A DNA stretch of 63,695 bases, counting the filler, from Dugesia japonica (Eukaryota): the NCBI GenBank assembly GCA_001938525.1. It is 6 parts of 6 records of this genome, joined end to end, with 100 filler letters (N's around TTAATTAATTAA, not from the genome) between each part and the next. Parts side by side here need not be neighbours in the genome. Positions count along the whole stretch, not along the records: positions 35,258 to 44,429 come from MQRL01633452.1; 5 more parts are not named here. One strand, given 5' to 3'. This document shows positions 11,829 to 54,290 of this stretch, piece after piece (positions within the stretch are counted from its first letter, which is position 1; the number at the start of each line of letters is the position of its first letter). The position numbers were made by a program, and so were the translations under genes. Under the pieces are notes generated by a model, which saw only the letters and a program-made list of their open reading frames with translations, did no database searches and had not been told where the DNA came from.

Positions 11829-14796
11829 TGTTGGGGTGAAACACTCAGTTAATAAGAAAACAAGGCTAGGGGCTCAAATCATGAAACATCAAAGGCGGGG
11901 GTTGGAAAGAGAATTAAACAAACGCAGGGGAAAGAATATAAAAATCATCCATAAAAGAAGTCGAAAAGAAAAGCAATTACAAATAATCAATATGGTTAAA
12001 ATATAACGAAAATAATCAATCATAGAACAAAAAATTAAAAAGAAGATGGGTATGGAGATTTTGAGTGAACAAAAACAACTCGCAACCATGCCAGTAATTA
12101 AAGAAAATTATCAAATTAATAATAAAAGACAAAAAAATTATTATTGGAAAATAAGTATTTATCACAAAAATATTAATTAATTTGGACGAAAAAATAAATT
12201 GAAAGAAAATCAATTTTTAACGATTATCTCTGCTCAGAATAATCGCAGAGACTCGGAGAAAGAAAATCTAGAAAGAAAAAGATTGGGGGCATTATGATTT
12301 GGCAACTAAGAAACCATGTCGTCGTCAGGAACACCCCTGTAAGCATCTAGAAAACTAGCCAATGAGGGGTTGAAAAATAAAAATAAAACAAAGAGAAGAT
12401 GATCATATAACGCTCCAAAAATAAACGCCAATGAAAGTTCTAAAATTCCATGAAAACATTTGAAAAGTAACATCAGAACAAATGGAAAACAAGAAATTTG
12501 AACTAAAAATAGTTGTCCAATGTAGAAAAAATAGGGGTGTAATCAAAAACGGTATATAAACCATCCAAATTTTAGAAACAAAAAACAACGTTTTCATAGA
12601 TCAGAGTAACAGAAATCTACGTATTAATATCAAAAGGAGAAGCTCGAATCTTTGGTGATCGAAAATCAACAGAATTACTTATTACTTAAAATCAAGCATT
12701 ACGGCGTGTACTCAAGAAACCCAAAAGTAAAATTATCATTGGTACCAGTTTACTTATTTTCATTTCCAAGGAGATCTTAAGAAAAGAATATCATATTCAC
12801 CCTGTGTAAAATCATAGAACTTAGAAAATATGGAGAAAACCCATTGCAGGAATACCAATCGAAGTTAAAAAGTAAAGAATTTTTGTTTTATTCGTTGTCT
12901 TATAGCAATAAAAACTTATTTAAAGAAAATTAATTTTGCATTATGCTATTATAAATGAAGAAATAAAACAAACACAATTTTATATGTTGTATTTAATCAA
13001 CAAACCTACTTTTTGTCTGTTAAAGTTTAAAAAAATCCAATTCCCGAAAAACATGTAAATTTAACCCTCACTAGCTTGATAAATACAATATTGCCATCAA
13101 CTTTTTCATAGATTAAATTTGAACCTTTAGTAAATTGAGATACCAAGGCCATAAGTGTTACAACTCCCGATACGGAGTAACTTGAATTTTCTGTTTTGAT
13201 CAACCAATGATTCACAGACTAATTGCTGCTTATAACAAAGTAAGAAATCCACAGAAGTAAACCGTATGACACACCAACACACATGTAGAGCACAAAAATA
13301 TCATAGTAATAAGACACACCAGCATCACCTAGTATGAGTCAACACACACGAGGCTGACATCGTGATTGCCAATTTCTGTTAAAAAACTGAATGTGTAAAT
13401 ACCACTTTTAATTTAGTAGACTATTATGACAACCACCCCAATTAATGTGCATCGTCATAAGGTATTCAGCTAGGTCGAATCCACTCTACTTAAAGTCAGG
13501 AACCTGCAATTCTAGTAATTTCATGAGGGTGGGTTAATATAGAGAGGTTAACGGATTAGCAATCTGAAAATATTAATATTGCAAATTATAACATCGTGAT
13601 GATTAGTTTTGGTGTTATGATGATTATCAGTATTGTTAATATTGATCTTACAGTGTGGGAATTATGTATCAGCATGTTTAATGTCCGACGTTCCCATTAT
13701 CGCGATCTGCGTGGGAGTGAGTAAAGTATTTATATTTCATTCGTAGCATTAAATATGGCAGGCTCTATTACCATGATTAAATACAGTTTTTTAGACATAG
13801 CATAGATGGAATGCGGGGCTCAAACATCATTAATACTCCTCGTTAACCGTATTATTAACAAGCAATTATGTTGGACTTCATTATGCCAAATCATTTTGGA
13901 TCTTTCCGGGAACTACCATTATTAATACTATGATTAGCATTAAAATATTGCGGTCATTATTATTATTATTAATTTTATTAGTTTTATTGTTATTAGTATT
14001 AAAATTGCCCTTATTATTATTAATATTATTGTTAATAGTATTCGGATTATTATTAACCGGACGATTATTATCATAATTATCCTCGTCCTTGTTGTTAGAC
14101 ACAGTAGTCGGGAAATTATCAATGTAAAATTGTTAACGCCGTTTTATAATACCTGATAGGATTATCCAGAACGATTAACTTAATTCACCGGCCATATTCG
14201 CAGGTTTAAGATTTTCATTAACAATTGATCCAACTTCAGGAGCAACTATTTCCAGCAAGAAATCAGTTGTGATACTGCCGCGTCCTCTGCTGGTGTTGCC
14301 ACCAGAAGAAGGGTCCTTGGCATTTTTATTATTCACCAAAATTAATTATCTTAGTCCTTAGTCATAATAAAAGTTACCATAATTGTTTGTTAATTTTCTA
14401 GATAATGCCAACCAAGCTAATCCGCACTTTNNNNNNNNNNNNNNNNNNNNNNNNNNNNNNNNNNNNNNNNNNNNNNNNNNNNNNNNNNNNNNNNNNNNNN
14501 NNNATCAAACACCCCGACGAAACCGACTTAGGTTGTTTCGTCCAGATGTTCCCCCTAGAACGCCAAGAAGATCTGGATGAGGAGTAATAATGCGTAAAAA
14601 TTTCCTACTCGTGCTTAGATCAAATTGGTGTAGACAATGGTGATTTATTTATTTGTACTTTAATTTATTTTAATAATAAAGGTTATTTATTTGGTTTGTG
14701 CATTCACCCATATTAAATTTCTTCTGAGTAAAGTTATTTCTGTTTTACATAGTTATGTGTGAGTTTATTAACAGAAATGGAATACCTATGGGAAAC
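11829..14796. mobile_element. LTR-family element, cut by the scaffold end
   Basis: Starts TGTTGGGGTG, resembling 29948; internal decayed minus-strand frames include an Asn-rich tract (13881-14102); right boundary not determinable. Confidence 0.45.
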
Positions 14797-24834: not shown

Positions 24835-24874
<40 letters not shown>

Positions 24875-25949: not shown

Positions 25950-26641
25950 AATAAATCTTTAATAATCTCTTCTTTTTCTCTATCTAAAAAGATATAATTA
26001 TATTTATCTTTCTAATGATTTCTAATAAAATTGTCAAAGGATAATTTATCCTGTTCGATATTACTAATTTAATCTTGATAAACCATATCTTTATCTCTTT
26101 GATTTAACTTGAAAAATATGAAATAATTAGAATTATTTCTAATTGAGTTTTTATCTAAAGCGTAATAAGTTTGGGATATATAAATAACATTACAATTATT
26201 ATGTCTTCCTCTAGTAAAATAAGATTTTTGAATATCTTGATTTTTCATATTTACTACATCATCAAATATAACTAAATTCTTTTTATTCATAGGAAGATTA
26301 TCACAATAAATAATATCTTCAGGGTTATTAGAAAACGTAACATCAATTTTATTTTCCTCATCTATGTATTCATTTTTGTTAAACTTTGCACGTTCAGACA
26401 TCGAAGATGTCGCTTTTATATAAGAATTAATAATATTTTCTTTCTACCATTCAACAATACTATACGCAGTATTTACTTTATCTGGTATTCTATCTTGATT
26501 AATAATTAATATATTTAAAATAGCTTTCTTAGTAAAATTATTCTCTAAACCTTCTTTTAATATTTGTAATTCAATTTGATTTATAGTTGTAGAATAAAAT
26601 ATTAAATTGTTATAATCCATGAAATTATCTGCTAATAACAT
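25950..26641 (-). pseudogene. Polinton A32-like packaging ATPase, C-terminal part
   Basis: Walker B NLVIFDD, FTRGRHNNCNVIYISQTYY, SIRNNSNYFIFFK. Confidence 0.92.
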
Positions 26642-27562: not shown

Positions 27563-27898
27563 TTACGAATGCAACTCGCCTTCTTCACTCTCATCCCCAT
27601 CGGGATCAATCTCCGGCGGTTGGACGTCCTCGGCACTGGCTGTCGATTCGGTCTTCTCAAGGACCGCCATTAACCGATTCCGTTGCGATGTCAGTAACGT
27701 ATTATTGGCTTCGAGGATGGCAATCCGCAAACTGGTCACCTCGAGGTCCGCCCTCAACTCAGTTACCTCTTCTTTTCTTTCTATTTTTTCCTCGCNAATC
27801 ATTTCTTGGACCTCCGTCCACTCAATATAATAGTAACCGTTGCGATCGATGTACGGCCATATGTAGCGTGGTCGCTTTAAATTTCTTCTATTACTCAT
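27563..27898 (-). CDS. LTR-borne coiled-coil protein with acidic tail, function unknown
   Basis: 111-aa ORF, locally GC-rich, heptads VTELRADLEVTSLRIAILEANNTLLTSQRNRL, D/E-rich end; acceptor ttattag just upstream. Confidence 0.55.
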   Translation of the reverse strand: MSNRRNLKRPRYIWPYIDRNGYYYIEWTEVQEMIXEEKIERKEEVTELRADLEVTSLRIAILEANNTLLTSQRNRLMAVLEKTESTASAEDVQPPEIDPDGDESEEGELHS

Positions 27899-29399
27899 TA
27901 CCTAATAAATTATGATTATTTTATCAATTTCCTCTATATATGATAATACATTTATAAAAGAAAATTAAAATTTTCTAAATTAAAATTTATATCGGAGCGT
28001 TCCCTGCCTGACTTTCTTCGGCCTTCGGCCTATTAAATATGGTTCCTTAGATTATAACACGAACCAGGGAAGATACCTGTTGGAAACAAGCATGTCATCA
28101 CTAAACTCCGTTACACTTTCCTTACGAACTACCTGCCTATCGACATTGATAAATTAAGTATAAACTGATAACTAAATCATTCGTTGATCTTTCACAGATA
28201 TCAAAATAAAAAAAATTCTTAATTCATAATTTATTAATTTTATGATTGGAATGGTAATTTCCTTTATCAATTAACAATATTGTATTTTTGTATTTAATAG
28301 GTTAGTACTTGACGAAAAGAATCGATAACTTGTTTTTATTTAACTGGGTTTTATTCTTATGTGAAAAGCTGTAATTAAAGCATTATATATATCTTCGTTA
28401 ATGATTATCAATGCCAGTAAACAATAAAACTACTTGAATAATAATTGTAATCAAATAATCATACTAAAAGTAACTGGGTATAATAAATCCGTTCGACTAA
28501 ATAAATATTAGTAAATTCATTACCTGTTTGCTAAAATCAATTTAACATGTTAATACTAATTCACAAACAAAGTCGCCGATTCACTTCCTCTCAGTTGAAT
28601 TTATTACATCACTATATTATTTAACATGTAACGAATCACATCGATAATGACGATCACACCACTTATAACGATGGACCTAGTGTGCTGGTACTGGCATCGA
28701 TAAACTACTACGATATTTTTATTGCAAATTATGATCTAAAATAACTCTCAATTTAATAACAAAAAAAAAAACTTTGAAGATAAAAAATGGTAAAATTGTT
28801 TATTAACATTTTCAATGATTTTGATTTAATTACAGGCTCGTACTTAACTCCACATTTATAGTCAATTATGATCAACATAATTCGACCACGCAACAATACT
28901 ACTTCTAGAGAAATTTGACAGAACCCCACCTAAACGATTACTCGCAATTGCTGGCATATATTCTCCGCTACTATCGGGCATTACGTAATTATTCATATAC
29001 TGAATTCATTCTCGGGTATTCCCCAAAAAATATAATTTTATTAGTGGAATTTAATTGCGCAAATCTACTAGTGCTCTTCTCAAAATGGGTAGAGTTCTCG
29101 GCTATCTCTAGCTCTTTATTTATCAAATCCGGATTATACTTTTCCTTCCCACTACTCACAATCATCGTCTACCACTCTCATTATGACACTCGGATAATCA
29201 GTTATTTAATATCAAAAATTAATTTTAGTATGCGAATACATTATTGAATAAAATTGAATATTTACTTTTTCCTTTGCAATCAGTGTTTTTTCTGGAAATA
29301 TCTCGGATTAACTGCTGACAATTTTTACTATTTTCTCGAAACAAAATTTATTCTTCAAATAGAATCCTAAAATTTTTCTTTATTCACAATAATTGACAA

Positions 29400-29947
29400 C
29401 AGAAAAATATTTTCACAAAAATTCAAAGTTTATTCTGATTCTTTTCTCCGGGTAACGATGTTTTATTCCTTCACAGATTGACGAGCTCTCATTGCTCGCC
29501 CAATCATCGGTTTGTATTGCAAAATCTTGGAGTCTCATTGGTTCCCGGGAATAGATTTCTCGAATCTCTAAAATCATCACACCACCACTATGCGTGCCTG
29601 CATGCACGATTGATTGACAACGAATTTGGGAAAAACCAAATTCGTGTCGTCATGGAGAATGTCTTCGTTTAACTATCTAGTTTTTCAAGTGAATCAGCAC
29701 TTGGAAAAACCAAAATAAAAGTGACTGGACCAAAATAAATCAACTTCTTAATAATATTAAACGCTAATTAGCGTTATTTATAATAACGATAGTGGGTCGT
29801 AGAGGCCATTTTAATATTTTATTATAGTATTTTATATTATTTTTATTATTTGGCTTATCATTTTCTACTTGTCCATTAAAGTTTCATAGTTGGATCACCA
29901 AATTTGGGTCCTCTACGCCCAATTTTCATTTTTTCTCGTTTTAATAA
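29400..29947 (-). mobile_element. LTR-family segment with palindromic cassette and short ORF
   Basis: 29600-29740 is the reverse complement of 49350-49495; cassette at 29760-29920; probably continues at 31949-32122. Confidence 0.65.
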
Positions 29948-31948
29948 TGTTGGGGTTTTACCTGAGTTGGATGAAAGAAATCGTGGCTGGGGAAAAACAG
30001 CCCTCAGAAAACCCTTTCAAGAATTTTAATCCAATACCCCTCAGTTGCATAATCAGTGCAGAGCGGTTGACCTTCAACCTTTACGGGAGGTTCAGACTCA
30101 TACACCTTTAATTTGGGTTCATTAATTTCCCTTATAGACACAAAATTAGACAAAAGTTATCAAAAACATCTATTAGCATTACAACTTATATGTCTTCCAA
30201 TACATCAGGGTCTAACCACTGAGTCGGGTCAGTCTCCCAAAAATCAAACGCGGCCATATCGTCGTTATCATTCCACTGCGCCCACACAGGGTTTCCCATT
30301 TGGCTCGACAGATCGGCTATGTATTGCTTCAAGAAATCTATCTTTCGTTGTAATATTTGTTTTTTTTGTACTTCAAGAGCCAATGTTTGGGCAGCCGAAT
30401 CACTCTGTTTTTTGACTATTTAATCTAATTTCTTTATTAATCGGTTCCTCTGGGTGAGATGTCTTAGAAGGACTTCTTCGGTCTTGCGCTTTAAATGGCG
30501 TTCTAACAATAATCGACGCATAATCCGGTGACACCTTCGCAAACTTGTCGGGAATACGATTCGTGTCACTAAATGAAAAGTATAGCTAAGTCGGCTTAAA
30601 CCAATTTTAAAACAGAGAAGCAAATTAGAGTTGATACAATTAAAGCAATTTATTAAAGACAATCTAAATCATAAACGCGATAGCTCACGAGCGGTTGGTC
30701 TGGGTACCTTTATCTACCAAAAGTGGGGGCAACGGCATGGCTGTTTTCAACTTCAGGATATTCTCTATTAACTGATTCTCGCGCTCCTGATATGACTTGA
30801 TGAATTCGGTGAGGGATTCGACTTGTGCCTTCCACACCCTTTCCTTCTTCTGGGTTGCTTCTATCTCCGATTTGAAAGTCAAGCACTTCCGTTTATACCG
30901 TTTAACTTTAGCCTCGGCGGTCGCAGTTTCTGCTTCCCACCGCCGTTTAGAGAGTCGGTATAAATCCCATGTAAGCTCGATGTCCTCGCTGGTTTCACGT
31001 AATTTCTTATTCGGAGCTTGGGATCTATTCAAGGAAGAATGCACTGAAAATACAAATACCATGAAGAAGGTCTGACTCTTAACTGATTTATAATTTAATA
31101 AAAGAAGATAGATGGTTTATGGATAAAAGAAAAACGAATAGCGGGTTGACAATGTTTATTCTATGCAACAACAATACACTGAAACCTCTACAATGTCTTC
31201 TTCGGTATTCTCATTGTTACTATTAGAAGCCTCATTTCGGGCACTCCAAAGGTAGTTCTGAACAAAGGCGGATAATTGAGAAGTGGACGGTAACCGGTTC
31301 GTGGTGACGCGTATTAAAGAAGGTCCATCATGCCACAGCCGCTCTACCTGTAGTACGTCAGCAGATCTTTCGAAAGAAAGTGCAGTTGGAGGAAATGCAA
31401 CTCGATCCCTTCTCGGACCACACCAACTATAGTAGGCACTCCTTTCCGTCGCATCCCACTGCCTTTTATCCATTGCGTACTTGGCGGAGACATTGGAGCG
31501 ATCGACTAGAACGCCGGCGTCACGATTATACGGATTTTGGTATCATTTAAATACTGTTCGTCCCGAATGAATATCCAGACTTACCTCCCATTTGAACTAC
31601 ATAATGCCGATTCTGTCTCGTCGGGATGTTCCACCTGGCCTTTCGTTAAACAGTGTGCTAGTAATTGCTTCAATTTAACGGCACGACGTTGTTGTTTGAT
31701 CCAGTGTAGCATATGGCGTAGCTCCGCTGGCATTTGCTAAAAAGAGAAATAAAATAAAATTCTACCTAGAGACACAGAGCTTAGATGTGGAACATCACTT
31801 GGGGACATACAGCAAAGAGTAATACAAACACAAAGAAAAATTTGTTTACTTTCCATTTCACTCATAAGGTTACAAAAGTAACCGGGATGGGCAGGAGAAA
31901 GCCGAAAATGCCAACCATATTAAGATTGTGGACCGCGATCCCTCAATA
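29948..31948 (-). mobile_element. Nested ~2-kb LTR carrying a multi-exon coiled-coil gene
   Basis: Starts TGTTGGGG, probable other end CCCTCAATA, imperfect TSD ATAA/ATAC; minus-strand ORFs 31156-31473, 30685-31062, 30420-30662 and 30186-30383 with GT-AG signals; homologous to 42040-42821. Confidence 0.7.
30685..31062 (-). CDS. LTR-borne coiled-coil exon ending in DKGTQT
   Basis: Open frame after a ttttcag acceptor near 31044; heptads; the homolog at 42060-42136 ends DKATQT. Confidence 0.6.
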   Translation of the reverse strand: MVFVFSVHSSLNRSQAPNKKLRETSEDIELTWDLYRLSKRRWEAETATAEAKVKRYKRKCLTFKSEIEATQKKERVWKAQVESLTEFIKSYQERENQLIENILKLKTAMPLPPLLVDKGTQTNRS

Positions 31949-34401
31949 ATACTAATAACGATACTGATGACGTGATGCTAATAACGCCAAAATCATGGTG
32001 ATGCTGCTACTATTAACTATTACCTTAGATGGTTAATGACTTTTCCACTCTCAAAATATTATGGAAAATAAATATAATTATGATAACAATCTCTTATTAG
32101 CGGTTTTGTTAACGACCCCAGCGTTGACTAGTGACATTACTTATATAATCTTACTCACAGTAATAATATAACTAAAAATTATAATATTAATACTAGGGGT
32201 ACAATAATAACTAAATTAATAAGTTGGATGGATATAATAAAAAGCGGAAGACCAGTGATGCTGGTAGTTTGATACCTTAATTGCTCTATCTCCAACTTCC
32301 TTTACACATTTACTTTATTTAATTGAACTTATCATTATCCATACTAATTTAACAAGTAGCAAATTTTAAATTTTCTGTAATATTAAAGAAATCAACTATT
32401 ATCTACTTGTTTAGGAATCATAGATTTAATTGTAATCATAATATCTTCCATTCTCATTATTCTAAATAAATTATTTTTAAATTTCTGCATATTGTGAGAG
32501 TCACTTAGTAACTGTTACCTTAGTAGAATAGTCTCGTTTTGCTAAACCGTGTGTGGGAACACACAAACAGAAAATTTTTAGACGTGTGGAAACATCAAAT
32601 GGATGTTGAGATTCTCACAATATGCATGCATGTGCAATCGTCTGTTGTGTTGATTCGTTTCCATTTCGGAGTTTGACGATATGCTATTTTATTATTCATC
32701 AACTAATTGAGATAATCAATATCAAGGTATTTATTCCTTATTCATGCCGAATTACAAAAGACACGAAACTACCACTAAATTAATGGAATTTGCCTGAGAG
32801 TGTATTACATTATTCTTATCGTTGGAGATTTAATTATAGAAATTCTGGGATTTATATCTTTTCAGTATTATTGAAGGTAACTATTTTATCTAAATAAATT
32901 ATTAGCATCTTATTTTTCTTCTGTTTTAATCTTAAACCAATAAATAAGCTTTCATATTTAATTACGATACTTGATTGTAGATTAATATTTATAAGTTTGA
33001 GTGTGGCTTTTAAATGATAAAAATTTTGCAAGGCAAAATGTGCTGTCAGCACCATCTTTTAATAATTGAAAATTAGTAGATTGAAAATTATTTTTCATAA
33101 TTTTATTCATCCAATTTAACAGCTTGTGCTCAATTTAGAAAATAAAAAAAGAAATTATTTAATTGGTAATTTTATTAAGAGCATAATGTTTGTACTTTAT
33201 CATTCAATGATAATAATCACAAATAAAATGTTACTTTTTTTCAATGATAAAAAGGCTTCTGCAACAGTGCTCGCAACCGGTAGTGATTAATACAGTCGGG
33301 TTCCTCGGATAACTAATTTTCTGGTCTAGGATCCACTGTTTATTTTTCTTATCTTTGAACTAAGGTTAATTAATGCGCAATGTATTAGAAATTACTAGAA
33401 AGTTTCCTCCTGAAGGTGATTACTTCTTGCCTGATAATAGTTTTCGTAAGTTAACGAGAGTCCGGTAATTGACCAATAAATACGTTGAATTTCTTTTTCG
33501 TTGAAGAGTGGTGTAAAATTTGTTTTTCGTAAGTTGTCAAAATTAATAGTATAAATTTGTTTTTCGTAAGTTGTTAAAATTAACAGTTATTTTCTGCCTA
33601 AACGGGGGTCCTTTTATAGGATTTGACTTACACCCCGACTTCTTCTAGATTTGCTGATTATTTTTAGATCAGCNNNNNNNNNNNNNNNNNNNNNNNNNNN
33701 NNNNNNNNNNNNNNNNNNNNNNNNNNNNNNNNNNNNNNNNNNNNNNNNNNNNNNNNNNCCTGACAATTGTGTCTTTGTTCTATTTTTATTTTTAGCTTTC
33801 TTATTGGCCCGATCTTCAAGACCCTTCAGCAACCTTCCGGATGGTGGTAAGTTTTTCCTTCTTAACCGTTTCAATGCACCTTGTTGTTTTCTTTTCATAT
33901 TTTCTTATCCGGGTTCTTTCCNATTTCCTTGAGTGAAGTTATTCGGGTAAAGCGGATTTTTNAACTAATTTTGCTTCTTTTTATTTTTAAAATTAATTAA
34001 TTTTCTTTTGTTAATTAATTATTTTCCATACTGCCTTTCTTTGTTGTTTATTATTAATTTAATAATTTTCTTAATTTCCAATTGTAAGTTGCTTTCATAT
34101 TACCCGGTTCTTCGTATTTATCTTTGATTTTATTTCGTTCTTTTTTAATGGTGGTTTCGTGCCTGATATTTCATTATTGGTGACTATATTGGTCCGCAAT
34201 TTTTTTGTTGATTCGGCTTTTCAGCCTTATTCGCGTTTAGCGGGTGTTCCACTCCAACAATAATAATGATAATATAAGATAAAATATCTGATCCAGCACC
34301 AATTTTCACTTAATTTTCCGCTTGTTCCCGGATAATTTCCGTATTATTTGGGGATGCTTTACTAGCTCTTTTGCACTGAAATTATGTGTTCTAGCCCAAT
34401 A

Positions 34402-34559: not shown

Positions 34560-34960
34560 ATAACTGAAACTGAATTAATAGATTCTAATACATAAAAATT
34601 GTTTTATTAGATAATAAAAATTATTGGATCGGCAAGAATGTAAAAGAAGCAACTAAAAACGAAGAAGCTAAAGAAGGAGGAATATTACCACTATTAACGT
34701 TAATTCCTGCAATAATCACTGGATTATCTGGTGCTGCTGGTATTGCTGGCAGAGTTGCAACAGCTGTTTCTAAAGCGAGAGAAGCTTTAAAATTAGGTGT
34801 AGAAAAACAAAAGGTTTGAAGAAGAATTAAAGCAATTAAAAGAAGCGAGAAATAAAACTGTTCAACCATTTAAAGGAAAAGTCGTCGTTGAAAGTTATAA
34901 AGGTAACGGAATTTATTTAAATCCTTATCAAGGGAAAGGAATATATAATTTTATAAAGAA
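34560..34960 (+). pseudogene. Polinton small structural/core protein remnant
   Basis: EGGILPLLTLIPAIITGLSGAAGIAGRVATAV and GNGIYLNPYQGKG: GG(I/F)LP amphipathic and GxG motifs like adenovirus-type precursor proteins of Polintons. Confidence 0.65.
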
Positions 34961-35157
34961 TTTAATTAATCAACCAATTTTGCCTGAAAAAACAGTAATA
35001 AATGAAACAGGTAAAAATTAAAACTAGGAGGAATAGTTAAAATAAAAGAATCAAAATATCTTTTAGGAATATACATGAGATATTATTAAATAAATAGATA
35101 TTTAAAAATGTATGAAGATAGAATTACTTTATTAAAACAATTAATCAAAGAACAAGA

Positions 35158-35318: not shown

Positions 35319-35648
35319 GTATCAGATAAAGGGGGTGGTATTAGTCGATCTATGATGCCTCTTATTTTCAATTACACATTTACGACAGCTCAATATCAGC
35401 CTACACTTCGCGAAAGTGGCGAAGCTGCTATGGCTGGTTTTGGGTATGGTTTACCGTTAAGTCGTCTTTATGCAAGATATCTTAATGGTGATATGATGAT
35501 AGTATCGATGGATGGTTATGGAACTGACGCTTATGTGTTTTTGAAATTACGTGCTGCAGATGCTGATGAATATCTCCCGGTTTTCAGCCGGTCATCTGTA
35601 ATGAAGCACGCTAATCAGATCAATAATCGTACTGATTGGTCTCGATAG
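35319..35648 (+). CDS. PDK: Pyruvate dehydrogenase kinase, last exon
   Basis: Acceptor attcag; VSDKGGG, FNYTFTTA, MAGFGYGLPLSRLYARY, SMDGYGTDAYVFLK are GHKL motifs diagnostic of the PDK/BCKDK family. Confidence 0.93.
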   Translation, partial: VSDKGGGISRSMMPLIFNYTFTTAQYQPTLRESGEAAMAGFGYGLPLSRLYARYLNGDMMIVSMDGYGTDAYVFLKLRAADADEYLPVFSRSSVMKHANQINNRTDWSR

Positions 35649-37024
35649 AAATGTTTACTTGACTTATTAATTTTTTATAACTCTCCCCATCTTTTAATAA
35701 TTTAAAGTTAAAATATTACTTTATAAAAATTAATCTTTAAAAAAAANNNNNNNNNNNNNNNNNNNNNNNNNNNNNNNNNNNNNNNNNNNNNNNNNNNNNN
35801 NNNNNNNNNNNNNTATTAAATATTCATTTAATGTTGAAATATCAATTTTATCGATCATTTAGATGTGTAAATTCAATAAATAATTTAGTTTAATCTGAAT
35901 TATTTATCATTTTATCTATCGGTTTCAGGGTATCTTAGAATGTTTGTAATTCTAACAGGCATTATTGGGCATAGCTTGACGAGTTCTTGTATTTCTATTG
36001 GGTACTTCGGTTTTATTTGAATTAAACTTTTATGCTTTTAATGATCTTCTTTGAGAATACATTACGTATTATATCATANNNNNNNNNNNNNNNNNNNNNN
36101 NNNNNNNNNNNNNNNNNNNNNNNNNNNNNNNNNNNNNNNNNNNNNNNNNNNNNNNNNNNNNNNNNNNNNNNNNNNNNNTATAGATTGTATCGTAAATTTC
36201 GTGTCTAAAATATCGATATTTTTCCTCTTTTGTCCTGTGAAATAGTTTATAACAATCATATAGTAAGGACAAAGTTTTATATAGTGTATGCTGTTCATTT
36301 GAAATTGAGATGGAAACTCTTTCAATAAATAAGATTTAAATTTTGAAATTTTCATTTCAATATTATTAGATATAACTATTACGATTAAGAAAATGGAATC
36401 TAATTAGGATATTTGCAAAAGAATGTCAGGTTTAGCTGTATTGTAGATTACTAGAAACCAGGAACAACATTTATCATACGAAGAATTATTGTTCAATGCT
36501 GTGTAATACTTAATTTGCTGATTAACATTTAAAAAATAAATTAATAGTATTAAGAAAATATAGGTAATTTATTACATAAAGGTTAAATAGCAATAGTATA
36601 TAGAGAGTGGTGCACTAGATCACAGTGAGTTAATTAATCTCTGATTAGCTACTTACAAATTTTAAGTAGCTAAAAAAAATTTTAACTTTGAATAAGTCAT
36701 TAAGTATGACTCATTTTCGAAAAATTTTTTTTAGTATTTTTCTTTGTTTTAAGAACAAAGCCTCCTGACAGAACTTTTAGAACAAAGATCTTAGGGTGAT
36801 TCAACGGCAACGAATTCATTTTTAAAATGTACTTCGTTACAGATGAGTTTAAAAAAATGAGGCTTACTTCCTCAGTTTAAAAAATCATTGTAGCTTTATG
36901 TATCGATTCATGAATTTCAAATATCTGAGATTTTTTAATTTTATATTTATAATATTCAAATTGAGTTTTTGAAACTTTTAAAATATAAAACAGGTTTTTT
37001 AAAATACAAATTAATTGAATAAAT

Positions 37025-37285
37025 TCTATAAATTATAAAAAATTAATTTGTAAAATTAGGTTTAAAAAATAATTAAATGAATATAATAAAGGTATTTTAA
37101 AATTAAAGTCGATATTATATATTATATTAAATTATAAAAATAATTTTATAGAATTAGGTTTAAAAATAAATAAAGATATATGTAAAATAAAGGTATTTGA
37201 AAATTAAAGTCGATATTTTATATTATGCTAAATTATAAAATTTTAAAAATTATTTTGTAAAATTAGGTTTAAAAATAATTAGAGA
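37025..37285 (+). repeat. AT-rich tandem repeat, ~100-110-nt unit, ~2.5 copies
   Basis: AATTAGGTTTAAAAA...TAAAGGTATTT.AAAATTAAAGTCGATATT recurs. Confidence 0.75.
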
Positions 37286-37949
37286 TACAGGTAAATTAAA
37301 AGTAGAGGGGAATTTTAAAAATCAATATTATTGAAACATATTTTTACATATCTCAGATTATTTTGAATATTGTGAATTGTGCTTTATTATTTTTCATTTT
37401 AATAAAAGACTNNNNNNNNNNNNNNNNNNNNNNNNNNNNNNNNNNNNNNNNNNNNNNNNNNNNNNNNNNNNNNNNNNNNNNNNNNNNNNNNNNNNNNNNN
37501 NNNNNNNNNNNNNNNNNNNNNNNNNNNNNNNNNNNNNACTAATTTGTTCACGAAGGAAACGTAAAATGACGAGGATAATTTTAAAATTCTGTCATCTTTA
37601 TATTTAATGTACTTGAAAAATTTTTGACATAATAATGATGTTATATTTTCGATGTTTTCATGAAATATTACATTATTACTCACTTGGGAATGTCAACAAT
37701 CTGGAGAAAGGGATATAACTGGTATTAAACCATTCATCAATCATATAATGAATCAAGAGAAACGTTGCATGTTCAATGTTTTAATAAGGCATTCTCAATA
37801 GTATTGAAAATTTTTGAATAAACTTTTGTGAAAATAACCATTGTATTTATAGCTGTGGTGAACTATTCATTCACGGAATTGTGGGTGTAAATTGCTCTAA
37901 TTGATCAACAATATCGTACCATTTCTTTCCAAAACTTATGAACTCCAAT

Positions 37950-40430
37950 TAACTGCCCATCAAACCCTTTTAACTTTCTTTCTGAGGAGCTACTGCTTCC
38001 GAGCTTGAAAATTTGAAAGCTGCTAATTTATTCCAAATATAAATTTCTTATTTCCGATTTAACGGCAACGCGTTGAGCTTATACGCAGGGGAAAATTACG
38101 AGGAATTAACAAAAAAAGCTGTGTTGATGAAAACAAGCTTAATCAATTCCGAAAGCACATTTGTAATAAATTCAGAAAAGTCAAAAGTAGTTGAGTGTTA
38201 CCGATGTCATAAAAATGGACACATCCAAAGATTGCAAAGTTAAATTGAATACTGAGCAAAGTAAGGGTATTCAATGTACAAACTGTGGTTACAATAATTA
38301 CACTAAAAAGAATTGCAAAAGAAATATTTAAATTGCGAGAAATGTAAACGCATGGGCCATGTATCCAAGGTTTGCAGAACCAAAACAAATTATAATAATA
38401 ATGTCGATAGAGGCACAGTTAACTTAAATTGAAAAATAAAATGTCACGGATGCAGAAAATTCGGGCACTTGAAAATATCATGTTCACAGGAACAAAATAA
38501 ACGTGGCCAAGCAATCAGCAAATATGATCAACTCAGAAGATGGTATGACGTATTTACAGCAACTGGAAATGGAAATACAGGAGGAGAGAAACAGACTACC
38601 TAAGCTAAATAATAGGGACTCGGTCTTTATTATAACAGAGGATCCCCGTCATAGATCGGAAGAATGCACAGCAATGATTGTCGAAAATGAGCAATCACGG
38701 GGTACAGACCCAGAAGTAAATCAACTAAAATCCGAGATTCTTGACAGCTGTAAAGCATAGTTAAATCCAGGAAGGATTTTCAAACTTCGTTAAAAAGGTA
38801 TTTAGAGAAGTTAGCTAGCGTTGAATTAACTGACGAAGACATAGGTAGCTTAGTGCAAATGTTATCGACAATTAAGAGTGAGAACACTTATTTTAATCCA
38901 ATCGCGGAGATTTGCCGTTAAGTAGACAACAAATTGCTACATGCTTAGGATTTGCGAAATGCTCAAGTAGTTATACATAAGCCAAAAGTGGCAGATGTAG
39001 TTATTGAAATAGATGTGCGCGAACCAGTTGCGAGGTTGGCAACACATTTAAAGAGAGTAAACGCAGAGAATTTGAACTATATTAGTTCAACGAGAAATTA
39101 GATAGAGAAAAAATGATTCTGTTATGCGGCATATTACCAAATGTGAAAACAGAGTTACAGGTTAAGGAGAAAGTAGTGGAAGTAGCCAAAATTAGCCCAG
39201 ATAGCATATTTTTTATATAATACATGGAATTGGACCAGCTCCAAGAATTCCAATCTATTCCACAGCGATTGAAGAGAGAAATCCAATCAAATCCAAGAAA
39301 TACTGAAAATATTAAAGATATTTTGAGTTGGACATTGTCATTCAACATTCCAACGAAGACATTAACGGAAATAGTACCATTATTACTACCTCTGGCTGGT
39401 ATTCTAAGTAGTTATCAAAATGAAATCTCAATGCTAATACGGTAAAATGGTCAAATAATTAGACAAGACCCAAAAAGACAAAGCTAGATCAGCAGATATC
39501 TGAAATCAAAAGATTTTCGTGTTCTTAAAAGGTGCTAAAATTGAAAATGGTTACTGGAATCATATTTCCAAGCACTTGTTTGATAGAAATTTGGGGAAAT
39601 CAAGTTGATGATGANNNNNNNNNNNNNNNNNNNNNNNNNNNNNNNNNNNNNNNNNNNNNNNNNNNNNNNNNNNNNNNNNNNNNNNNNNNNNNNNNNNNNN
39701 NNNNNNNNNNNNNNNNNNNNNNNNNNNNNNNNNNNNNNNNNNNNNNNNNNNNNNNNNNNNNNNNNNNNNNNNNNNNNNNNNNNGAGCCTCAAGTTGATGC
39801 AATATATAATTCACAAAATGTACCACGAAAAATATTTGTGGAAGAAGATATTAATCTATGTCCAATTCCAAATCAAGGAATGGAAGCAGGACGATCGCCG
39901 CCTAAAGATCCAAGAGATATAAATTAACCAAGATTTAGACCAAATAAGAAACCTAATGTTAAATCGGTAGATGAAACGGTTGCAAGAGAAATTAGAGCTT
40001 AAGTATTGGAAAATATAATCAATGATTTTGAAAATGAAACAGATTTGGTCAACGTTTCCTGAAACAGTTTGCAAAATTATGCAAATAATTCGACTTATTT
40101 AGCCAAAATTAAAAATCGATAAATCTGGAGATTAGAATATGAGTAAGCTAGCATTTTTGCTAAAATCACTCATCAAACAGTTTCACAAAACATTACCAGG
40201 TGAAAGCACAAAAAATTCAATTCACACATTAGCAAAGCAAGGAGTTACAACAGGGCAAGCTCTGACTGCCTTAGCTCTTATGATTCAAAATGCCTTAGCA
40301 AATGCAGGGAATAATGTTCGAAAATTGCAAGCAAAGATATTAAAGTTTGTACCAGTAATTAATTATAGATTTAAATCATGGATCGAGATATCCTGTGAGT
40401 GGAAAGCAGAATTATCTGAAAATAGATGAA
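37950..40430 (+). mobile_element. Decayed gag-like region with at least four CCHC zinc knuckles and further helical ORF pieces
   Basis: CYRCHKNGHI.. (38196), CTNCGYNNYTKKNC (38275), CEKCKRMGHVSKVC (38334), CHGCRKFGHLKISC (38442); downstream broken ORFs lack RT, RNase H and integrase motifs. Confidence 0.75.
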
Positions 40431-40529
40431 ATTCCATTAAATAGTGGTGAAATGCCAAGATAATTCAATCCGAGAGCATTTCAATCCACTAGATCCGGAA
40501 TAGAAAGTCCAACGCATATTTGTTTACTA

Positions 40530-41988
40530 ATTTTGATGATGTTAGAATTAATAAAACAAACTGGTAGCTTAATAGCAAACAATTGTAAAAATTTTATTCC
40601 ATCAGGTATATACTCACTTGTTGATGTGGTAGAATGCAATGAAGCCTATCCAGATAAAATAGACGTAACTAAGTCATCTGTGTATTATATCTATCAAGAG
40701 AAAGAGTATTATAGAACAAAAGTGAGGGAATGCTGAGTTCAAAAAGCAGTGTTCGAATATTATTGTGTAACGCATAGTTATGCCCCTATATTATCAGCTA
40801 AGCTCATACCATGACCGGTAAGCGTGTTACCAGAAGATTGCTTAGATGCTTTTAAAAAAGGCAAATTAAAAATTGATAGTGAAGTGACGTTAAATGCAGA
40901 AGTTTGAAAGATACTGGCAGAAGCAGTTATTAGAAGTGAAACAATCGATGAAGACGGTGATTGTAATGGTCGATTAAAAACAAGGCAGAATAATTTGGTA
41001 AATCGAGTAGTTGCTTTAGAAGACTATACAGTTGAATTAAGAGAATATGAAGGAATAGTTGAAGTGGAGACTGGAAATCTGGTGGGAAATCCACACTGCA
41101 ATTCAAAGTTTTCTACCTGTCGAACTGGGATGGCTACACTCTTATATGATGAAAGACGTGAGTTTTGTGAATTAACATTATTAAAAAAGCTATCTTTCAC
41201 GAAAATAAATGGAACCTGGCATAAAATGGAAGAAAAAGGATCCAGATTGATGGATGATCAAAAGGTAAAAAAGTTAAATAAAAATCAAGTAGTAAACATG
41301 GTTAACAATACACAAAGAAATAAAATTGAGAAGGAAAGTACTCTCGTTGTATTAGTATCAACTAATCCCAAGGATGCACTACGATTTGTCAAGAAAGCTT
41401 CCACAACGAAATGAGCTCATCTTGTCTACGAAACAAATTATAAAGGTCTATATTTGTGAAAAACGAATATTCCTAAATCAACACAATTAAACGCTAAAGA
41501 TATAAACATGAAAATTATGTAAACAACAAGATTGATTACGCCTATCATAGTTTGTTGTTTTAAATGGAGGAAATGTATCAAGAAGTAATCTTGAAGGATT
41601 GCAAATTGAGTGAAGAAATAATCGAAAATCGATTAGCTTTATCGATTGTGAATCCTGACCTTGTTACTCCAATGTTGTTAAAAAAGGAGTATTTAGAAAG
41701 ATCATTGGAGAGGCAATATACAGTTATCATTGCCCACCAGTAGATGTGTCGTTAGCTAACTTTAACCAATGTACAATAAAGTTGCCAGCTGTTTATGAAA
41801 AGAAATTGAGATTCAGGAGTATAGTAACTAATATGTTATTAAAAGAAAATGCGAAGCCACAGGAATCAGTATGTAATCCTGCAATGTCACTACTATACAA
41901 GGTTAATGATCATTGGATTTCCTTGCCTGACAAAACACCTGCATCAAAACAAGGTACAAACTTTATATATATCCTCTCTGGCAAATAA
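40530..41988 (+). pseudogene. Env-like glycoprotein of chuvirus/Monjiviricetes fusion-protein type
   Basis: Cys/motif pattern ANNC..YSLVDVVEC..YQ..VREC..YYCVTHSY..EDCLDAFKKG..DGDCNG..C..C.TG..C.LTLL..IGEAIYSYHCPPVDV..C...LP..Y..C...Y.V..HW; stops and frameshifts; TM end missing. Confidence 0.75.
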
Positions 41989-42039
41989 AATGGAATTCAA
42001 AATAAGTGACAAATTAGCTAAATCACGTTTATTTATTAC

Positions 42040-42821
42040 TTGTGCAGAAACTTTCCATTCTTTATTTCTCAAATTATTTTAACGTTCTACCCCAACACCT
42101 TTGCAGATCGATAAGGCTACTCAAACCTGTAATTGACCTTTCTTTGTTGTAGTTTAAATTATTGAAATCATAAATTCTCTAGTTGTATTGCTCTTTTATC
42201 TAACTGTCACATTATTTAGTGCCTCGTATCCAGTGTCCACGAAGTCTAAAGTGCTGTCACAAGTTATTGCGTAGTCTCATAATCGAACGTCATTATGTAA
42301 AAAAATGTGAATGAACTCTCCTACGCCATATTCAGCAAAAGAACCAACTTATTAAGAAAATGGAGTAGGTGTCAAAGAAGCAGCTTGCTATCGACAACCA
42401 AACCGCGAAAAAAATCTTTAATAAGGTCAATTTTCTGACCCAATACATAGCGGATATAANAAACCAGACAAAACTTTCTCCCTATCAGCCCATGGAACAG
42501 TGACGATGATAAAACCGGGTTTGACTTAACAGTGAACCCTTTGGTGTCTTCTTAACTGAATTATGTTGTTGCTATTTGGATATTCTCCTAAATAAATCTT
42601 ACTAGATGTCAGTCTGTAACTTTTCTTCGTGAATAAGTGAAGCGGAAGTTTGAACCCGAACCAAATGGATACGGACAGGTACTCAAACTATGTGTTATGA
42701 ATCAATGATTCCATCCTGAAAACCTAATTAAGGGACATTAGGTAAAATTTTCGCAGGGTTTCACTGAGGACCGATTTACCAGTCAACATTTTTAACACCC
42801 AACTCAGATGAGATCCAAACA
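42040..42821 (+). mobile_element. 3' part of an LTR homologous to 29948-30800
   Basis: PTPLQIDKATQT; LVPRIQCPRSLKCCHKLLRSLIIERH..LLRHIQQKNQLIKK..VNFLTQYIAD..PWNSDDD aligns with ORFs 30186-31062; ends CCAACTCAG..CCAAACA. Confidence 0.8.
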
Positions 42822-44429
42822 ATAATAATAATTATTATTATAATTTCATTGCAAAAACAAAGTAAAATAAAATAGAGTAGACTATTGCATTACTTAAGAG
42901 AAAACTTCTTTATGTTTGAAATTTTATTTTAAAAATTATCTTGTACATAAATGGTCGTAATACAAAATATCCACACCTCATCCTACAGTTTCTCAATAAT
43001 TTTTAAATTGCTCACACAAAATATCAACAATAGTATTACATTAATTTTTATTCTCGACAATATTGCTACTCATAGGCTTTTGGTCTTGAATTGTTCTAGA
43101 GAGAATACGGGCAGTCATGTATGAGGAATTACACCCATTTTATTTAAATTGATAAACAAGGTCAGAACACAAACCAATCGGTCTACGAGATTTATTACTG
43201 AACGTATCAATATTTTTATGAGGTAAATACCATTGTAAAAGGAAGGTCTTTAGCAGTTTTCAGAATTAAATACTTAAATTTTTTAAACAATCAGAAAAAG
43301 GAATTGGCAGTGACTCAAATAGTAATAAGGCTCCAAATTTTCCATCAAAATACCAGCCATTTGATCAACTTTAATNCTATTAATTGTTTACTATGTCCGT
43401 TTGTTTTCCATAAATTTTAAAAATGTTTAATACTCTTAACAAATTCTTAATGTGTTCCATTCTGTTTAGTTATAACATTCTAAAAAGACCAAAAATAATT
43501 TCTTTCTTTCTCTATAATAAATTTGAATTCTTGTTTAAATGATCACAATTTTACATTTTGTGATGACGGTTAATCAACCGTAGTAGATCACACAAAAATT
43601 AGTTAAAATTTATGAAATTTTATTTCTTCATAAATTTTCATAAAAATCTTTTAAGGAATCTCAACCATTTAGCTTTAATTTTAGTTTTCTTTTTCCATAT
43701 TGAGATAAATAATTAATTTATTTAAATTCATTTTGTTAATTTTGTTCAAGAATCATGATTGGATAAGAATGTTAATACATACATTGTGATAAGGCACACC
43801 AAATCACTCACTCATGTATATTGATTTATCAATATCAAATATCAATAGTACTAAATTAGAAACTGGAAACATTTCCAAGAAATTTTTCATTTATAAATTT
43901 AATTAGCGTTAGAGTAAAATTGAAAATCCAAGCTTATAACAATAAGACCAGAGCTTCTCATTTTCATTTTGATAAATAATATTGATTAACTGATCTGTAA
44001 AAAAGAAAATTAAAATTACGACTAAATTCTTTATTTAAGATTCACCAGAGATTTCATGCCAACTTACAATTTCCTTTAATAATTGATTTTGTAATTGAAA
44101 TCTAAATTTATTTAAATAATTTAATTTGATCAATTAATTAGATTTTTCTGATGTGAATAATTAAATTTTCTACTGTTCTTCAATTTATTTATTCACTTTA
44201 CTAAACTGGAATTTTTATTAAATAAATTGATGAAATAGTAAATTATTTTATATCTAAATTTATCTTTAAAAAAGTCCAATCAATAAATTGCCATCTGAAA
44301 CTAAATAGGGATGAATTTCTTTTAATTTCATCATGTCTCTTCTCTTGTCACGCGCATTTCAGTGATTCACAATGGTAAAATCTCAATGTCTACAATTGCC
44401 GAACGCGTGTACATTTAATTTTATATTCA

Positions 44430-47852: not shown

Positions 47853-48958
47853 ATGGAAGTAAATAAAGCGCACATTCGTCACTGTATGATGTTCATGTTC
47901 AATCTTGGGAAAACAGTAATGGAAACAAGATAATGGATTTCGGAAGCTTCTGGAGAAGACTCTTTTGGTCTTACGACGGTCAACGACTGGTTCGCTAAGT
48001 TTAAATGGGGAGAATTCAATTTGGATGATAAGCCAAGTAGTGGAAGACTCAAAGAGACTCAAGATAATTACATCAAAAGACTCCTGGAAAAAAGATAATA
48101 CTCAGTCCACCAGAGATATTGCCAAGAAGCTTAAGATTAATCAATCAACAGTCCAAAGAAGATTACGAGCTATGGGACTGATCCTGTAGGCAACGCGATG
48201 AATTCCGCATGATCTTTCAGAAAGAAATAAGAGTGACAGATTGAAGATTTCATTATATATTCTTGCAAGACATCGTAAAAAATCTTTTCTGTGGCGAATC
48301 GTGACGGGAGACGAGAAATGGGTATATTTTGAGAACCCGGTTTGCAAAAGGTCATGGGTGAATCCTGGACAGCCATCAACATCCACTCCAAAGCAGGAAA
48401 TTCATAGGAAAAAGTTTTATTGTGCATGTAGTAGAATATTAAAGGATTACTGTTTTATGATTNNNNNNNNNNNNNNNNNNNNNNNNNNNNNNNNNNNNNN
48501 NNNNNNNNNNNNNNNNNNNNNNNNNAACCACAAAATCAAAGAATTAAGGTCATTTTCTGCCCACAGTGAGCGAAAAATCTTTTTGTTGCATGATCACACT
48601 CGGCCTCATATTGCCTCATATACAAAAAATACGATTTTGGAGCTTGGTTGGGAAGTTTTATCACATCTGACTCACCAGATCTGGCATCTTCGGATTTTCA
48701 TATCTTCCGATCCCTACAACACACTCTTGCAAACCAATTCTTTAAGAATCGTGCAGATGTCACAGAATGTATCGACGAATTCTTTGCTTCTAAAGAAAAG
48801 AATGTCTACTTTAAGGGAATTCATATGTTGCCTGAAAAATAGCGAAAGGTCATAAATTCAAATGGTGACTATTTTGAAAATTAAATGTTTATGCAAATTT
48901 TTGTAATTTTAAATAAATATTAATGCAAAAGGTCGGAAACTTATGCATCAACCTAATA
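47853..48958 (+). mobile_element. Mariner transposon, decayed
   Basis: MEVNKAHIRHCM.., IPHDLS, RIVTGDEKWVYFEN, LLHDHTRPH, SPDLASSDFHIFRSL; right TIR ...AACTTATGCATCAACCTAATA. Confidence 0.93.
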
Positions 48959-49243: not shown

Positions 49244-49810
49244 NNNNNNNNNNNNNNNNNNNNNNNNNNNNNNNNNNNNNNNNNNNNNNNNNNNNNNNNN
49301 NNNNNTCATCGAGAAATTTGTTAATTAACGAGTTAATTAACAACAAAAACTGGTCCAGTCACCGATATCATACGATTTTCCTGGTTTTTCAAAGTGCTGA
49401 TTCACTTGGAAAACCAGACAGTAGAACAAGGATATTCTCCTGACGACACGAATGAGGAATTTCAAATTCGGTGTCAATCATGTTTGCATACAAACTAACC
49501 AACACCATGAACGAGATGAGATAAAACACCAGAATAATCAATCAATGAGAGAACGAAATTCAGAGGAGCGACTCTCAGAATTACTAGCCGATGTAGAGAT
49601 GCTTGGATTGCAGTTGATAAATAAAGATGAATATATCAAGTCATTAAAGCGTCCGCGGATAGAAGGGACTAGAATGTGCAAGGAGCTATCAAAGAGTCGG
49701 CTCGACAAGTAACTGATTGCACGATGGAGGTGGCAAAATGTCAAGCCCTAAAAGCTGGGCAATTAGAGGAAGAGGAAAAGAGACGAATCGTACGCGAATT
49801 GATGGGCATG
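49000..49810 (+). mobile_element. LTR-family fragment: cassette, (ATT)n tract and coiled-coil ORF 49452-49712
   Basis: Cassette 49018-49177; 49350-49495 homologous to 29600-29740; ORF with HVCIQTN and heptads. Confidence 0.7.
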
Positions 49811-52689: not shown

Positions 52690-54290
52690 CTGTTGGTACA
52701 TAAAATCTTTTCCAACATACACTCAAGTGCATCACTCCTGAGAGTTGGCGAGTTTACAAGACTCTTATGATTCCAAAGCAGAGCAAATCTGTATTTTATC
52801 ACCTTGTCTCTTCTTGGTGGCCATTTACTCTGTTGGATTGTCTTTACAAGCTTTTCATGGCTCGTCTTGTCTCTCAACCTCTGAATTGGGCTCAGAAGTC
52901 TCATCTTCTTCACAATCTTCAAACGAGTACTGGAGAACCTGAGGGGTACTCTGAGCAAATTTTCTTGCTTCGCTCCTTGAAGAAAAAAGTCGATATGATA
53001 GTTTTAACTTACATATAGGCTTTCTAGATATTGCTGACGCTTTTGGTAGCATCACCATCGCATATATTCTTGGTTTTATTGATCGTATGAGGGTGTCTAA
53101 AGCGGCCTCTGGTTTGATTAGGACCTTGTACACTGACTGCTGAAGCCACTATATTTGCGGAGGGACTTCTACACACCATATTGCAAATAGAAGAGAGGTC
53201 AGGCAAGGCTGTCCATTGTCGATGTTACTTTTTAACATTGGTATTGACCCAGTCATCAAGGAAATAACAAAGACTCCTGGAGGTGGAGTTAGTTTTGCTA
53301 ATCATCACATCTCTGTCTTGGCTTATGCGGATCATGCGTTGCTTGTTTCTTCAAAGACATTCTTTCAGGACATGATCAATGCTGCTCCTCACTTGGCTTT
53401 TTGGTCTTCCTTGGAAATTGAGATAAAAGATGAGGATTCATATCGTTATCTTGGGGTTGATTTCAGTCGGAGTCATTTTCAAACTCAGCCACACTCGAGG
53501 GTCACCTTTGCTTTTAGGAACTTCAACATCCTACTCGTTATTTTTGATGCTGCGACATACATTGAAAATAGCGTTGTTTTAGACAGAAATTGGTTGATAG
53601 ACGGATTAGAGAACATATTAGGAGTATTTTAGATCTCCGTCAGTTTTCGCGGATAGATTATCTATACACCCGCAAGCATAATGGGGGTGAATACTTGATG
53701 AATACTTGATNNNNNNNNNNNNNNNNNNNNNNNNNNNNNNNNNNNNNNNNNNNNNNNNNNCAATCTGTCATTTAAGCATTTAAAAAGCTTGTTTGTCAAG
53801 ATGTGGTTGTTAGAAATGTAGCCAAGAATCTTCTAATTTACGGTGCATCGAAACAGCTCAGACACCAAAACTTATGTTCCATAGATGACGCATTGAACTG
53901 GCTAAAGAAGAGAACCTTTTACACTCATACTAAGTGGTGATCAAAAGTTCCAACCTCCATCAGTAATGAACCATCACTTATTTGGAAAGAAAATTAAATT
54001 TCCAAGTCAGTTTCAGGCGTATTTTTAGATTGTGGATATTCAATCAGAGGGGAATTATTTAATTTCCTATAAAGATAAATGTACTGTAACCAAGATGTTA
54101 CACTATATTTTGAACTGGTCACACACCAGAAAGTGGAATACTCTCAATAAGCCTTGCTCAGTTTTCGTGGCTGTGGGAGCATCGCCATTATCCAATAGAC
54201 CCATATATGATGGAACTGGTGTTTCATTCAACATGGTAGTACTTGTACCATTCCTGTAGGCTTCAATCTTGGCTTTGAGAATCAAGTCTT
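52690..54290 (+). mobile_element. R2/NeSL/R5-type non-LTR retrotransposon remnant
   Basis: ESWRVYKTLMIPK, SWWPFTLLDCLYKLF, EGYSEQIFLL, FLDIADAFGSI, VRQGCPLSMLLFN, LAYAD, YRYLGV; internal deletions. Confidence 0.85.

Follow-up and report, generated by a model that had tools for sequence, protein, structure and literature searches.

The DNA analysed here (the window) is a 63,695-nucleotide stretch of the Dugesia japonica assembly GCA_001938525.1, AT-rich eukaryotic DNA from a gappy assembly. Between positions 37950 and 42821 it carries the remains of a retrovirus-like element: the 3' part of a gag gene, an accessory region with ubiquitin-like and Bcl-2-like modules, an env gene for a fusion glycoprotein and the end of a putative long terminal repeat (LTR), which are listed in Table 1 together with two related LTR-like features. 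An earlier inspection made without database searches (the sequence-only reading) took this arrangement for an enveloped, possibly non-autonomous retrovirus-like element with no pol. The closest intact relative found in the present analysis, the locus L002, serves as the reference for the comparisons below.

Table 1. Parts of the element and LTR-like features related to its 3' end, in window coordinates (ORF, open reading frame).
Feature	Position	Strand	Remarks
3' part of gag	37950..38622	+	capsid end, four zinc knuckles, then helix; stops and frameshifts; start coordinate approximate
Accessory segment	39077..39612	+	second half of a ubiquitin-like domain, helical linker, start of a second ubiquitin-like domain into the N gap
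Assembly gap	39615..39783		169 N; spacing across the gap agrees with L002
Bcl-2-like helical domain	40178..40438	+	immediately upstream of env
env	40518..42034	+	internal signal-like hydrophobic stretch 40518-40574, then class III fusion ectodomain
LTR-like end	42065..42821	+	~750 bp, small ORF remnants; ends CCAAACA, then ATAAT; start approximate (tblastx, by eye)
Solo-LTR-like element	29948..34259	-	4312 bp; TGTTGGGG...CTCCAACA, ATAA on both flanks; 85-N gap; several small minus-strand ORFs
Second partial, inverted copy of the solo-LTR family	11829..14080	+	blastn 64% over 423 columns, E 6e-31; two more colinear pieces

In the gag portion, three CCHC-type motifs share a single frame (38196, 38334 and 38442, from the translation; Pfam zf-CCHC, E 5.5e-4) and a fourth, degenerate knuckle was read from the translation of another frame at ~38275-38316. 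The knuckles announced by the sequence-only reading as "four or more" are thus real, but their number is four, as it also is in L002. Residues 149-357 of L002 align to 38064-38622 (best independent E-value, iE, 1e-7), and the several CCHC knuckles that open the ORF of Burro-like elements are accordingly found here in a position colinear with L002. A search across the window with residues 1-165 of L002 and L007 for the N-terminal part of the capsid gave nothing better than iE 1.4, and this gag lacks most of the capsid.

The ~2 kb that follow, previously described as unassigned helical ORF pieces, can be assigned to ubiquitin-like, helical and Bcl-2-like portions that are colinear with L002, whose residues 473-600 align to 39077-39466 and residues 803-845 to 40187-40315 with the order kept. 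An accessory profile built from four relatives matches the window at 39092-39394 (iE 8e-7), at 39251-39478 (iE 2e-9) and, as a third match, over the Bcl-2-like stretch (iE 8e-5). The structural model of the L002 accessory region (mean predicted local distance difference test score, pLDDT, 62; confident over the first 280 residues) contains two ubiquitin-like folds (Z 11.7-12.1, root-mean-square deviation 1.5-2.0 Å across 72-76 residues). A ubiquitin/SUMO-like domain between gag and BCL2, as in Burro-like elements, is therefore indicated by fold in L002 and by profile match in the window, where the second such domain was recognised by eye through comparison with L002 only. For the Bcl-2-like domain, a profile of five env-upstream segments ranks 40214-40426 first of 1272 window chunks (iE 0.002), and relatives give Pfam Bcl-2 matches at the equivalent position (P0007, E 1e-3; P0050, 0.012; L001, 4e-5), all under the curated cut-off; the window piece by itself has no Pfam match. 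The BCL2-like domain directly before env that is typical of Burro-like elements is hence represented by a match of modest score which is nevertheless the best chunk and lies in the expected place. Mixed profiles of all env-upstream regions, run against whole frames, found nothing, whereas the focused profiles on short chunks succeeded. The possibility that the middle stretch consists of viral N, P and M genes captured together with G was dropped, as the stretch matches a Gypsy polyprotein. The only gap is indeed, as noted earlier, about 170 N long and too small for pol; landmarks on its two sides are 936 nt apart in the window and 822 nt apart in L002, and it cannot hide pol because the gag-to-env spacing as a whole matches that of L002 (2628 vs 2406 nt).

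The glycoprotein encoded downstream matches Pfam PF24664 (Monjiviricetes_fusion) at 40464-41513 (E 7.3e-16) and 41659-41985 (E 1.4e-10; profile positions 365-448 of 653), and env profile coverage extends over positions 4-472 of 644. A structure model of its N-terminal half, with X placed at stops (pLDDT 88), is best matched by glycoproteins of chu-like viruses (E 7e-16, TMq ~0.6, 13-17% identity) and, among solved structures, by herpesvirus gB, baculovirus GP64 and Thogoto GP (best E 1.5e-6, low TM-scores), so that family and fold both bear out the chuvirus-like, class III character suspected from the sequence. The gene carries six in-frame stops and several frameshifts and ends at ~42034, which by eye, against seven relatives, is ~70 residues short of the transmembrane helix; the ~1.45 kb Cys-patterned glycoprotein of the sequence-only reading is therefore genuine but truncated, and without that helix. 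Relatives have one hydrophobic stretch just before env and a second ~560-570 residues on (P0004 131/701, P0012 368/931, P0024 350/905), the first of which the window retains at 40518. A word-indexed search for env homologues among proteins of 575-2000 aa found none, which is a weak negative.

Where pol belongs in such elements can be seen from the relatives. A search with env against 1.84 billion representative proteins gave 81 matches, 22 of which were scanned with Pfam, namely 16 long proteins (P0003-P0008, P0010, P0012, P0017, P0024, P0025, P0027, P0040, P0043, P0047, P0065) and six of stand-alone-glycoprotein size. In 11 of the 16 long relatives the polyprotein continues past env into a retroviral protease, and five of these 11 also have reverse transcriptase (RT), RNase H and integrase; among the other five, three stop within env or shortly past it (P0006, P0007 and P0017), one is a fusion of an unrelated kind (P0025) and the last lacks any pol match (P0065). 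The order env, protease, RT, RNase H, integrase is seen in P0082 (4844 aa, a cluster member) and in L003. A metagenome scan yielded seven loci out of 274 candidate stretches; L002 has an intact 3184-aa ORF that encodes gag with four knuckles, two ubiquitin-like domains, a Bcl-2-like domain, env, protease, RT, RNase H and integrase, and the locus also has an LTR end and a primer-binding site, which we take to be of the tRNA-Trp type. Its RT is nearest to Ty3 RT among solved structures (E 3e-78) and its Pfam domain set is of the Gypsy type. From gag through the accessory region and the Bcl-2-like domain to env, the window is colinear with L002. The viral contigs and prokaryote genomes searched contained no related locus.

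Identity of the window env to its nearest relatives is 53% over a 180-aa fragment and then 36-37%, with 25-53% for the top 17 sequence matches. The glycoprotein phylogeny that the sequence-only reading had proposed as a check, a tree of 41 rows, joins the window env to P0001 (support 100/97) and both to L002, P0002 and P0019 (100/98; a clade of five rows), so that it groups with a gag-env-pol relative, and the stand-alone glycoproteins and P0065 fall outside this clade, in a tree whose long branches leave the deep nodes unsure. In the window itself, tblastn with the pol regions of six relatives found nothing at E<1 anywhere, in agreement with the earlier impression that no pol is visible.

Taken together, the stretch 37950-42034 is very probably a decayed piece from the interior of a Burro/GYPSM1-like Ty3/Gypsy errantivirus with a single gag-env-pol polyprotein. 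A gB/mononegavirus-type env between gag and pol is indicated by Pfam, by the relatives' gene order, by the tree and by the folds. Ty3/Gypsy protease, RT, RNase H and integrase are present downstream of env in the relatives, and the window copy ends inside env; the polymerase would thus be missing because the copy breaks off before pol. An enveloped, Gypsy-type retrovirus-like element was correctly recognised at the outset, whereas a non-autonomous nature, or a design without pol, is not supported, as the relatives carry pol downstream of env in the same ORF. Some points weigh against our interpretation. The Bcl-2-like match is modest in both profile searches, and the same piece also drew a resolvase-like assignment, which came from Atlas clusters only, at <0.9, and was rejected. 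No intact copy of the exact window family was seen and the nearest env proteins are 53% and 36-37% identical, so the pol of this family is inferred from relatives. Furthermore, none of the 16 contig pieces listed bridges the env-LTR join at 42034-42065, which is weak evidence because most contig pieces (6719 further) lie outside that listing.

Planarian Burro/GYPSM1 is described with one ORF that encodes gag with two to three knuckles, a Ubi2/SUMO-like domain, BCL2, a mononegavirus-like env, protease and RT, and Dugesia japonica is reported to have decaying fragments that contain stops and frameshifts (PMC6431247). The window element resembles it in gag knuckles, ubiquitin/SUMO-like domain, BCL2-like domain and mononegavirus-like env, followed by protease and RT in the relatives. 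It differs by having four knuckles instead of two or three, and its closest intact relative has an ORF of 3184 aa with two ubiquitin-like domains, in contrast to the ~4870-5140 aa of Burro/GYPSM1; MATH/TRAF, BIR and ankyrin domains are not seen in the window stretch, both ends of which are missing. Nine gB-type elements with GAG-ENV-POL order are described from Platyhelminthes, six of them from Schmidtea mediterranea with 1-215 copies (PMC13524379), and they share with the window element the gene order, as judged from its relatives, and a class III gB-like env. Among the six Schmidtea rows the window env is closest to Smed_errantivirus_4, with 95/178 columns identical (~53%, by eye), a level that makes it a separate family; the window copy, not being intact, would fail the full RT and integrase filters used there (PMC13524379). 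One env match, P0021, bears a motif of Smed_errantivirus_1. Judged by its sequence, the window element would thus represent a new family, with ~53% env identity to the nearest one described, of a kind already in print.

The sequence-only reading had instead compared the element with BEL/Pao elements, which is the wrong closest system, as Burro/GYPSM1 and the Platyhelminthes GAG-ENV-POL errantiviruses fit. Anakin, a BEL/Pao element, likewise has a glycoprotein of this superfamily on an LTR retrotransposon (PMC7642597, PMC13524379), but the relatives of the window element have a Ty3/Gypsy RT and an env inside the gag-pol ORF, and a BEL/Pao-type pol was not found in these relatives, where L002 has the RT and Pfam set given above. 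With the glycoproteins of Jingchuvirales/Monjiviricetes and with herpesvirus gB the window env has the Pfam family and the class III fold in common; unlike a viral G, it is only 13-17% identical to its best structural matches, and its surroundings yielded no identifiable viral N or L gene.

The state of the window copy was examined by summed contig depth at 85% likeness in two contig sets, a measure that is not a copy number. Depth is ~10 in the unique flanks, climbs from ~10 to ~900 in the bin 37880-38141, ranges from 370 to 2800 over 37880-42071 and is 38-84 over 42072-42857; the contrast with the unique flanks identifies the internal region as a repeated family. An X3 contig covering 37552-38179 passes from unique DNA into gag with 0 differences, and a second junction, 42781-43098, which crosses the 3' end of the LTR piece, is likewise reproduced in X3 (0-1 differences for the two). 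No 5' LTR was found at the window copy, which starts mid-gag in unique DNA, and the window holds no tRNA genes or primer-binding sites above chance. The two intact LTRs, priming sites and many same-form copies of a non-autonomous element are consequently not seen here, where there is no 5' LTR, the upstream DNA is unique and depth past the join is low. In two of seven raw-read RNA runs (~6% and 25% of reads taken) the window copy is nearly silent, with depth of at most 1.2 in the element bins of both runs and 8 and 36 over a neighbouring kinase exon. It is a decayed fragment, cut at both ends and unable to perform the presumed functions of its parent.

The LTR piece is similar to the end of the solo-LTR-like element on the opposite strand of the window (42214-42828 vs 30574-29941: 57% identity in an alignment of 654 columns that scores 54 bits, where the best of 50 shuffles reached 31; tblastx E 1e-19), and an X3 contig spans 42426-42809 with 2 differences. 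The homology with 29948-30800 seen by the sequence-only reading stands as a similarity above shuffles, but the element extends over 29948-34259 and does not stop at ~30800 or 32100; an alternative end near 32122 was dropped, having no matching flanks. The flanking ATAA match is suggestive only, because ATAA makes up 1.5% of the 4-mers in the window. The window is put together from segments of ~9-15 kb joined by five 100-bp N-TTAATTAATTAA-N linkers with stops in all frames, at 14797, 23592, 35158, 44430 and 55343, and because the linker at 35158 separates their segments, the solo LTR cannot be assumed to adjoin the gag-env piece in the genome. A 4.3-kb solo-LTR-like relative of the LTR piece thus exists, which may or may not belong to the family of the window element. 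That this element is the parent of gene-bearing solo LTRs, as had been proposed, is unproven: identity is 57%, the LTR piece has a depth far below that of the internal region and its orientation could not be fixed.

A small ORF of the solo-LTR-like element is shared with 42213-42377 over 55 codons and a common stop, with mismatches of 26/15/33 by codon position and, among single-change codons, 9 synonymous vs 5 non-synonymous changes, in a segment whose choice by tblastx biases such a test of constraint. No synonymous excess is seen in the ORF at the element's opposite end, a word-indexed search for homologues of two LTR ORF stretches found none (a weak negative), and the LTR ORF matches only unnamed Atlas clusters, at <=0.80. 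It is nevertheless rather likely that the solo-LTR-like element carries real orphan genes. The literature search found no text on ORFs or antisense transcripts in Burro LTRs, in a coverage that did not include the original Burro description, reportedly that of Grohme et al. in 2018.

How env came to lie beside the LTR piece bears on the remaining explanations. An amplified non-autonomous gag-env-LTR element, borrowing pol in trans and giving rise to the gene-bearing solo LTRs, would be in line with gag, env and LTR ORFs on one strand, with the freedom from N runs between 39784 and the LTR end (bar one N at 42460) and with the absence of pol from the window. However, its Env would have no membrane anchor, capsid and 5' LTR are missing from a copy that begins in unique DNA, pol lies downstream in the relatives, and depth falls from 370-570 to 38-84 over the env-LTR join, a drop because of which few copies can share the join at >=85% identity; we give this explanation only a slim chance. 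It is also very improbable that the join marks a small pol-less derivative family, once multiplied in trans and encoding a secreted anchorless class III Env behind the ubiquitin-like and Bcl-2-like modules, with constrained accessory genes of no known family within 4.3-kb LTRs, and that the window copy is a later, 5'-truncated one. An independently captured chuvirus glycoprotein, either of the BEL/Pao Anakin type or as a free viral insertion, with gag adjacent by chance, can appeal to the chu-like glycoproteins that head the predicted viral structures, yet those structural matches are far less identical than the top 17 sequence matches, stand-alone G-sized proteins and P0065 lie outside the window clade, and colinearity with a Gypsy polyprotein holds all the way from gag to env, which leaves this explanation with next to no credence.

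More weight attaches to the proposal, compatible with a Burro/GYPSM1-like fragment, that 42065-42821 comes from a different Gypsy LTR family, one end of which lies, perhaps in inverted orientation, beside the fragment. The contig depth of this piece is roughly 5- to 70-fold under that of the internal region and its identity to the solo LTR is just 57%; the U5 ends of L002 and L007 have a high T content (0.39-0.42), a trait shared by the opposite end of the solo LTR (0.51) but not by the end considered here (0.30), and L002 aligns better to that opposite end (z 2.9 and 4.0). Conversely, the U5 end of L007 aligns better to the end considered here (z 3.2), with a common CTCAG...AACA terminus, and the piece has a clean terminus and, provided that its ORFs are sense, the orientation of a 3' LTR. 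Divergence is faster in LTRs than in coding DNA, so that the element's own LTR could also drop under the 85% depth cut-off, which counts against a foreign origin. On balance, this proposal falls a little short of an even chance. A short-read misassembly of two repeats at the env-LTR join would fit the gappy assembly and the missing bridge, but two other junctions are reproduced in X3 with at most one difference, and it is regarded as very unlikely.

For the Burro/GYPSM1-like errantivirus from which the fragment would derive, the following course of events is proposed. The parent polyprotein would have comprised Gag (capsid and four knuckles), two ubiquitin-like domains, a Bcl-2-like domain, a signal, the class III Env, a transmembrane helix, protease, RT, RNase H and integrase. 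Flanked by an internal signal on its N-terminal side and a stop-transfer helix on its C-terminal side, Env alone might be threaded through the membrane of the endoplasmic reticulum, while Gag and Pol would be left in the cytosol and freed by signal peptidase and the element's own protease. By analogy with its family, Env could use class III fusion to enter one cell from another, and the accessory modules, Bcl-2-like and ubiquitin-like, may by analogy with their own families influence cell death and protein turnover in the host. The window copy would have lost pol after insertion, either through a deletion by which env became fused with the distal end of the element's own 3' LTR, with a loss of at least ~5.4 kb of ORF as judged by L002, whose ORF runs ~1800 residues beyond the point equivalent to the window env end, or through truncation against a piece of another LTR; the two routes appear about equally probable.

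As a single dead fragment, of a group of env-bearing GAG-ENV-POL flatworm Gypsy elements already published, the locus matters little in itself. It is a reminder that a gag-env-LTR order is no proof of a pol-less element where pol follows env. The resolution of the gag-env interval into two ubiquitin-like domains and a Bcl-2-like domain may interest transposon specialists, as may the 4.3-kb LTR-like element with at least one small ORF that has signs of protein-level constraint and no relatives found.

Several minor observations concern the LTR-like features and the surroundings of the element. The element ends at 16074, 34259 and 42821 (CCAACA or CAAACA) are each followed by ATAATAAT, a possible target-site preference; across the window, 5 of 38 CCAACA sites are followed by ATAAT or ATTAT, against ~1.2% expected, two of the five coming from one other repeat. 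A second LTR-like piece at ~9470-11118 (+) ends in CCCAACA and has coiled-coil ORF remnants, and similar orphan coiled-coil ORFs without Pfam match lie at 27563-27901 and 49425-49712. Just upstream of the gap that precedes the element, an AT-rich tandem repeat with a unit of ~100 bp (36832-37411) reaches a summed depth of 19,000-30,000. Further upstream, 35319-35744 (+) is an expressed last exon (HATPase_c, E 2e-8), presumably from a gene similar to those for pyruvate dehydrogenase kinase; the exon to which it is spliced lies upstream, outside the window.

Among the relatives, L002 and L003 each have a second ORF after pol (9958-11778 and 10617-12104, respectively), of which that of L003 matches an RNase_T/DEDD exonuclease (E 1.4e-5) and that of L002 has no Pfam match. 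Several tandem aspartyl-protease domains (up to six stretches, in P0082) and insertions of ankyrin or C2H2 type separate env from RT in P0082, P0003 and P0004. The gag-env-pol polyprotein P0012 is deposited as a protein of a Flavobacteriaceae metagenome-assembled genome, probably through eukaryotic contamination. Elsewhere in the window, Polinton/adintovirus-like fragments lie at 26069-26443 (-) and 34589-35021 (+), with a Pox_A32 packaging ATPase (E 3e-6) and an Adeno_PX-like peptide (E 0.001). Fragments of mariner-type transposase and non-LTR reverse transcriptase occur at 5578-5877, 48202-48855, 4431-4892 and 53144-53632, and a further mariner-like piece was recognised by eye at 1719-2000.

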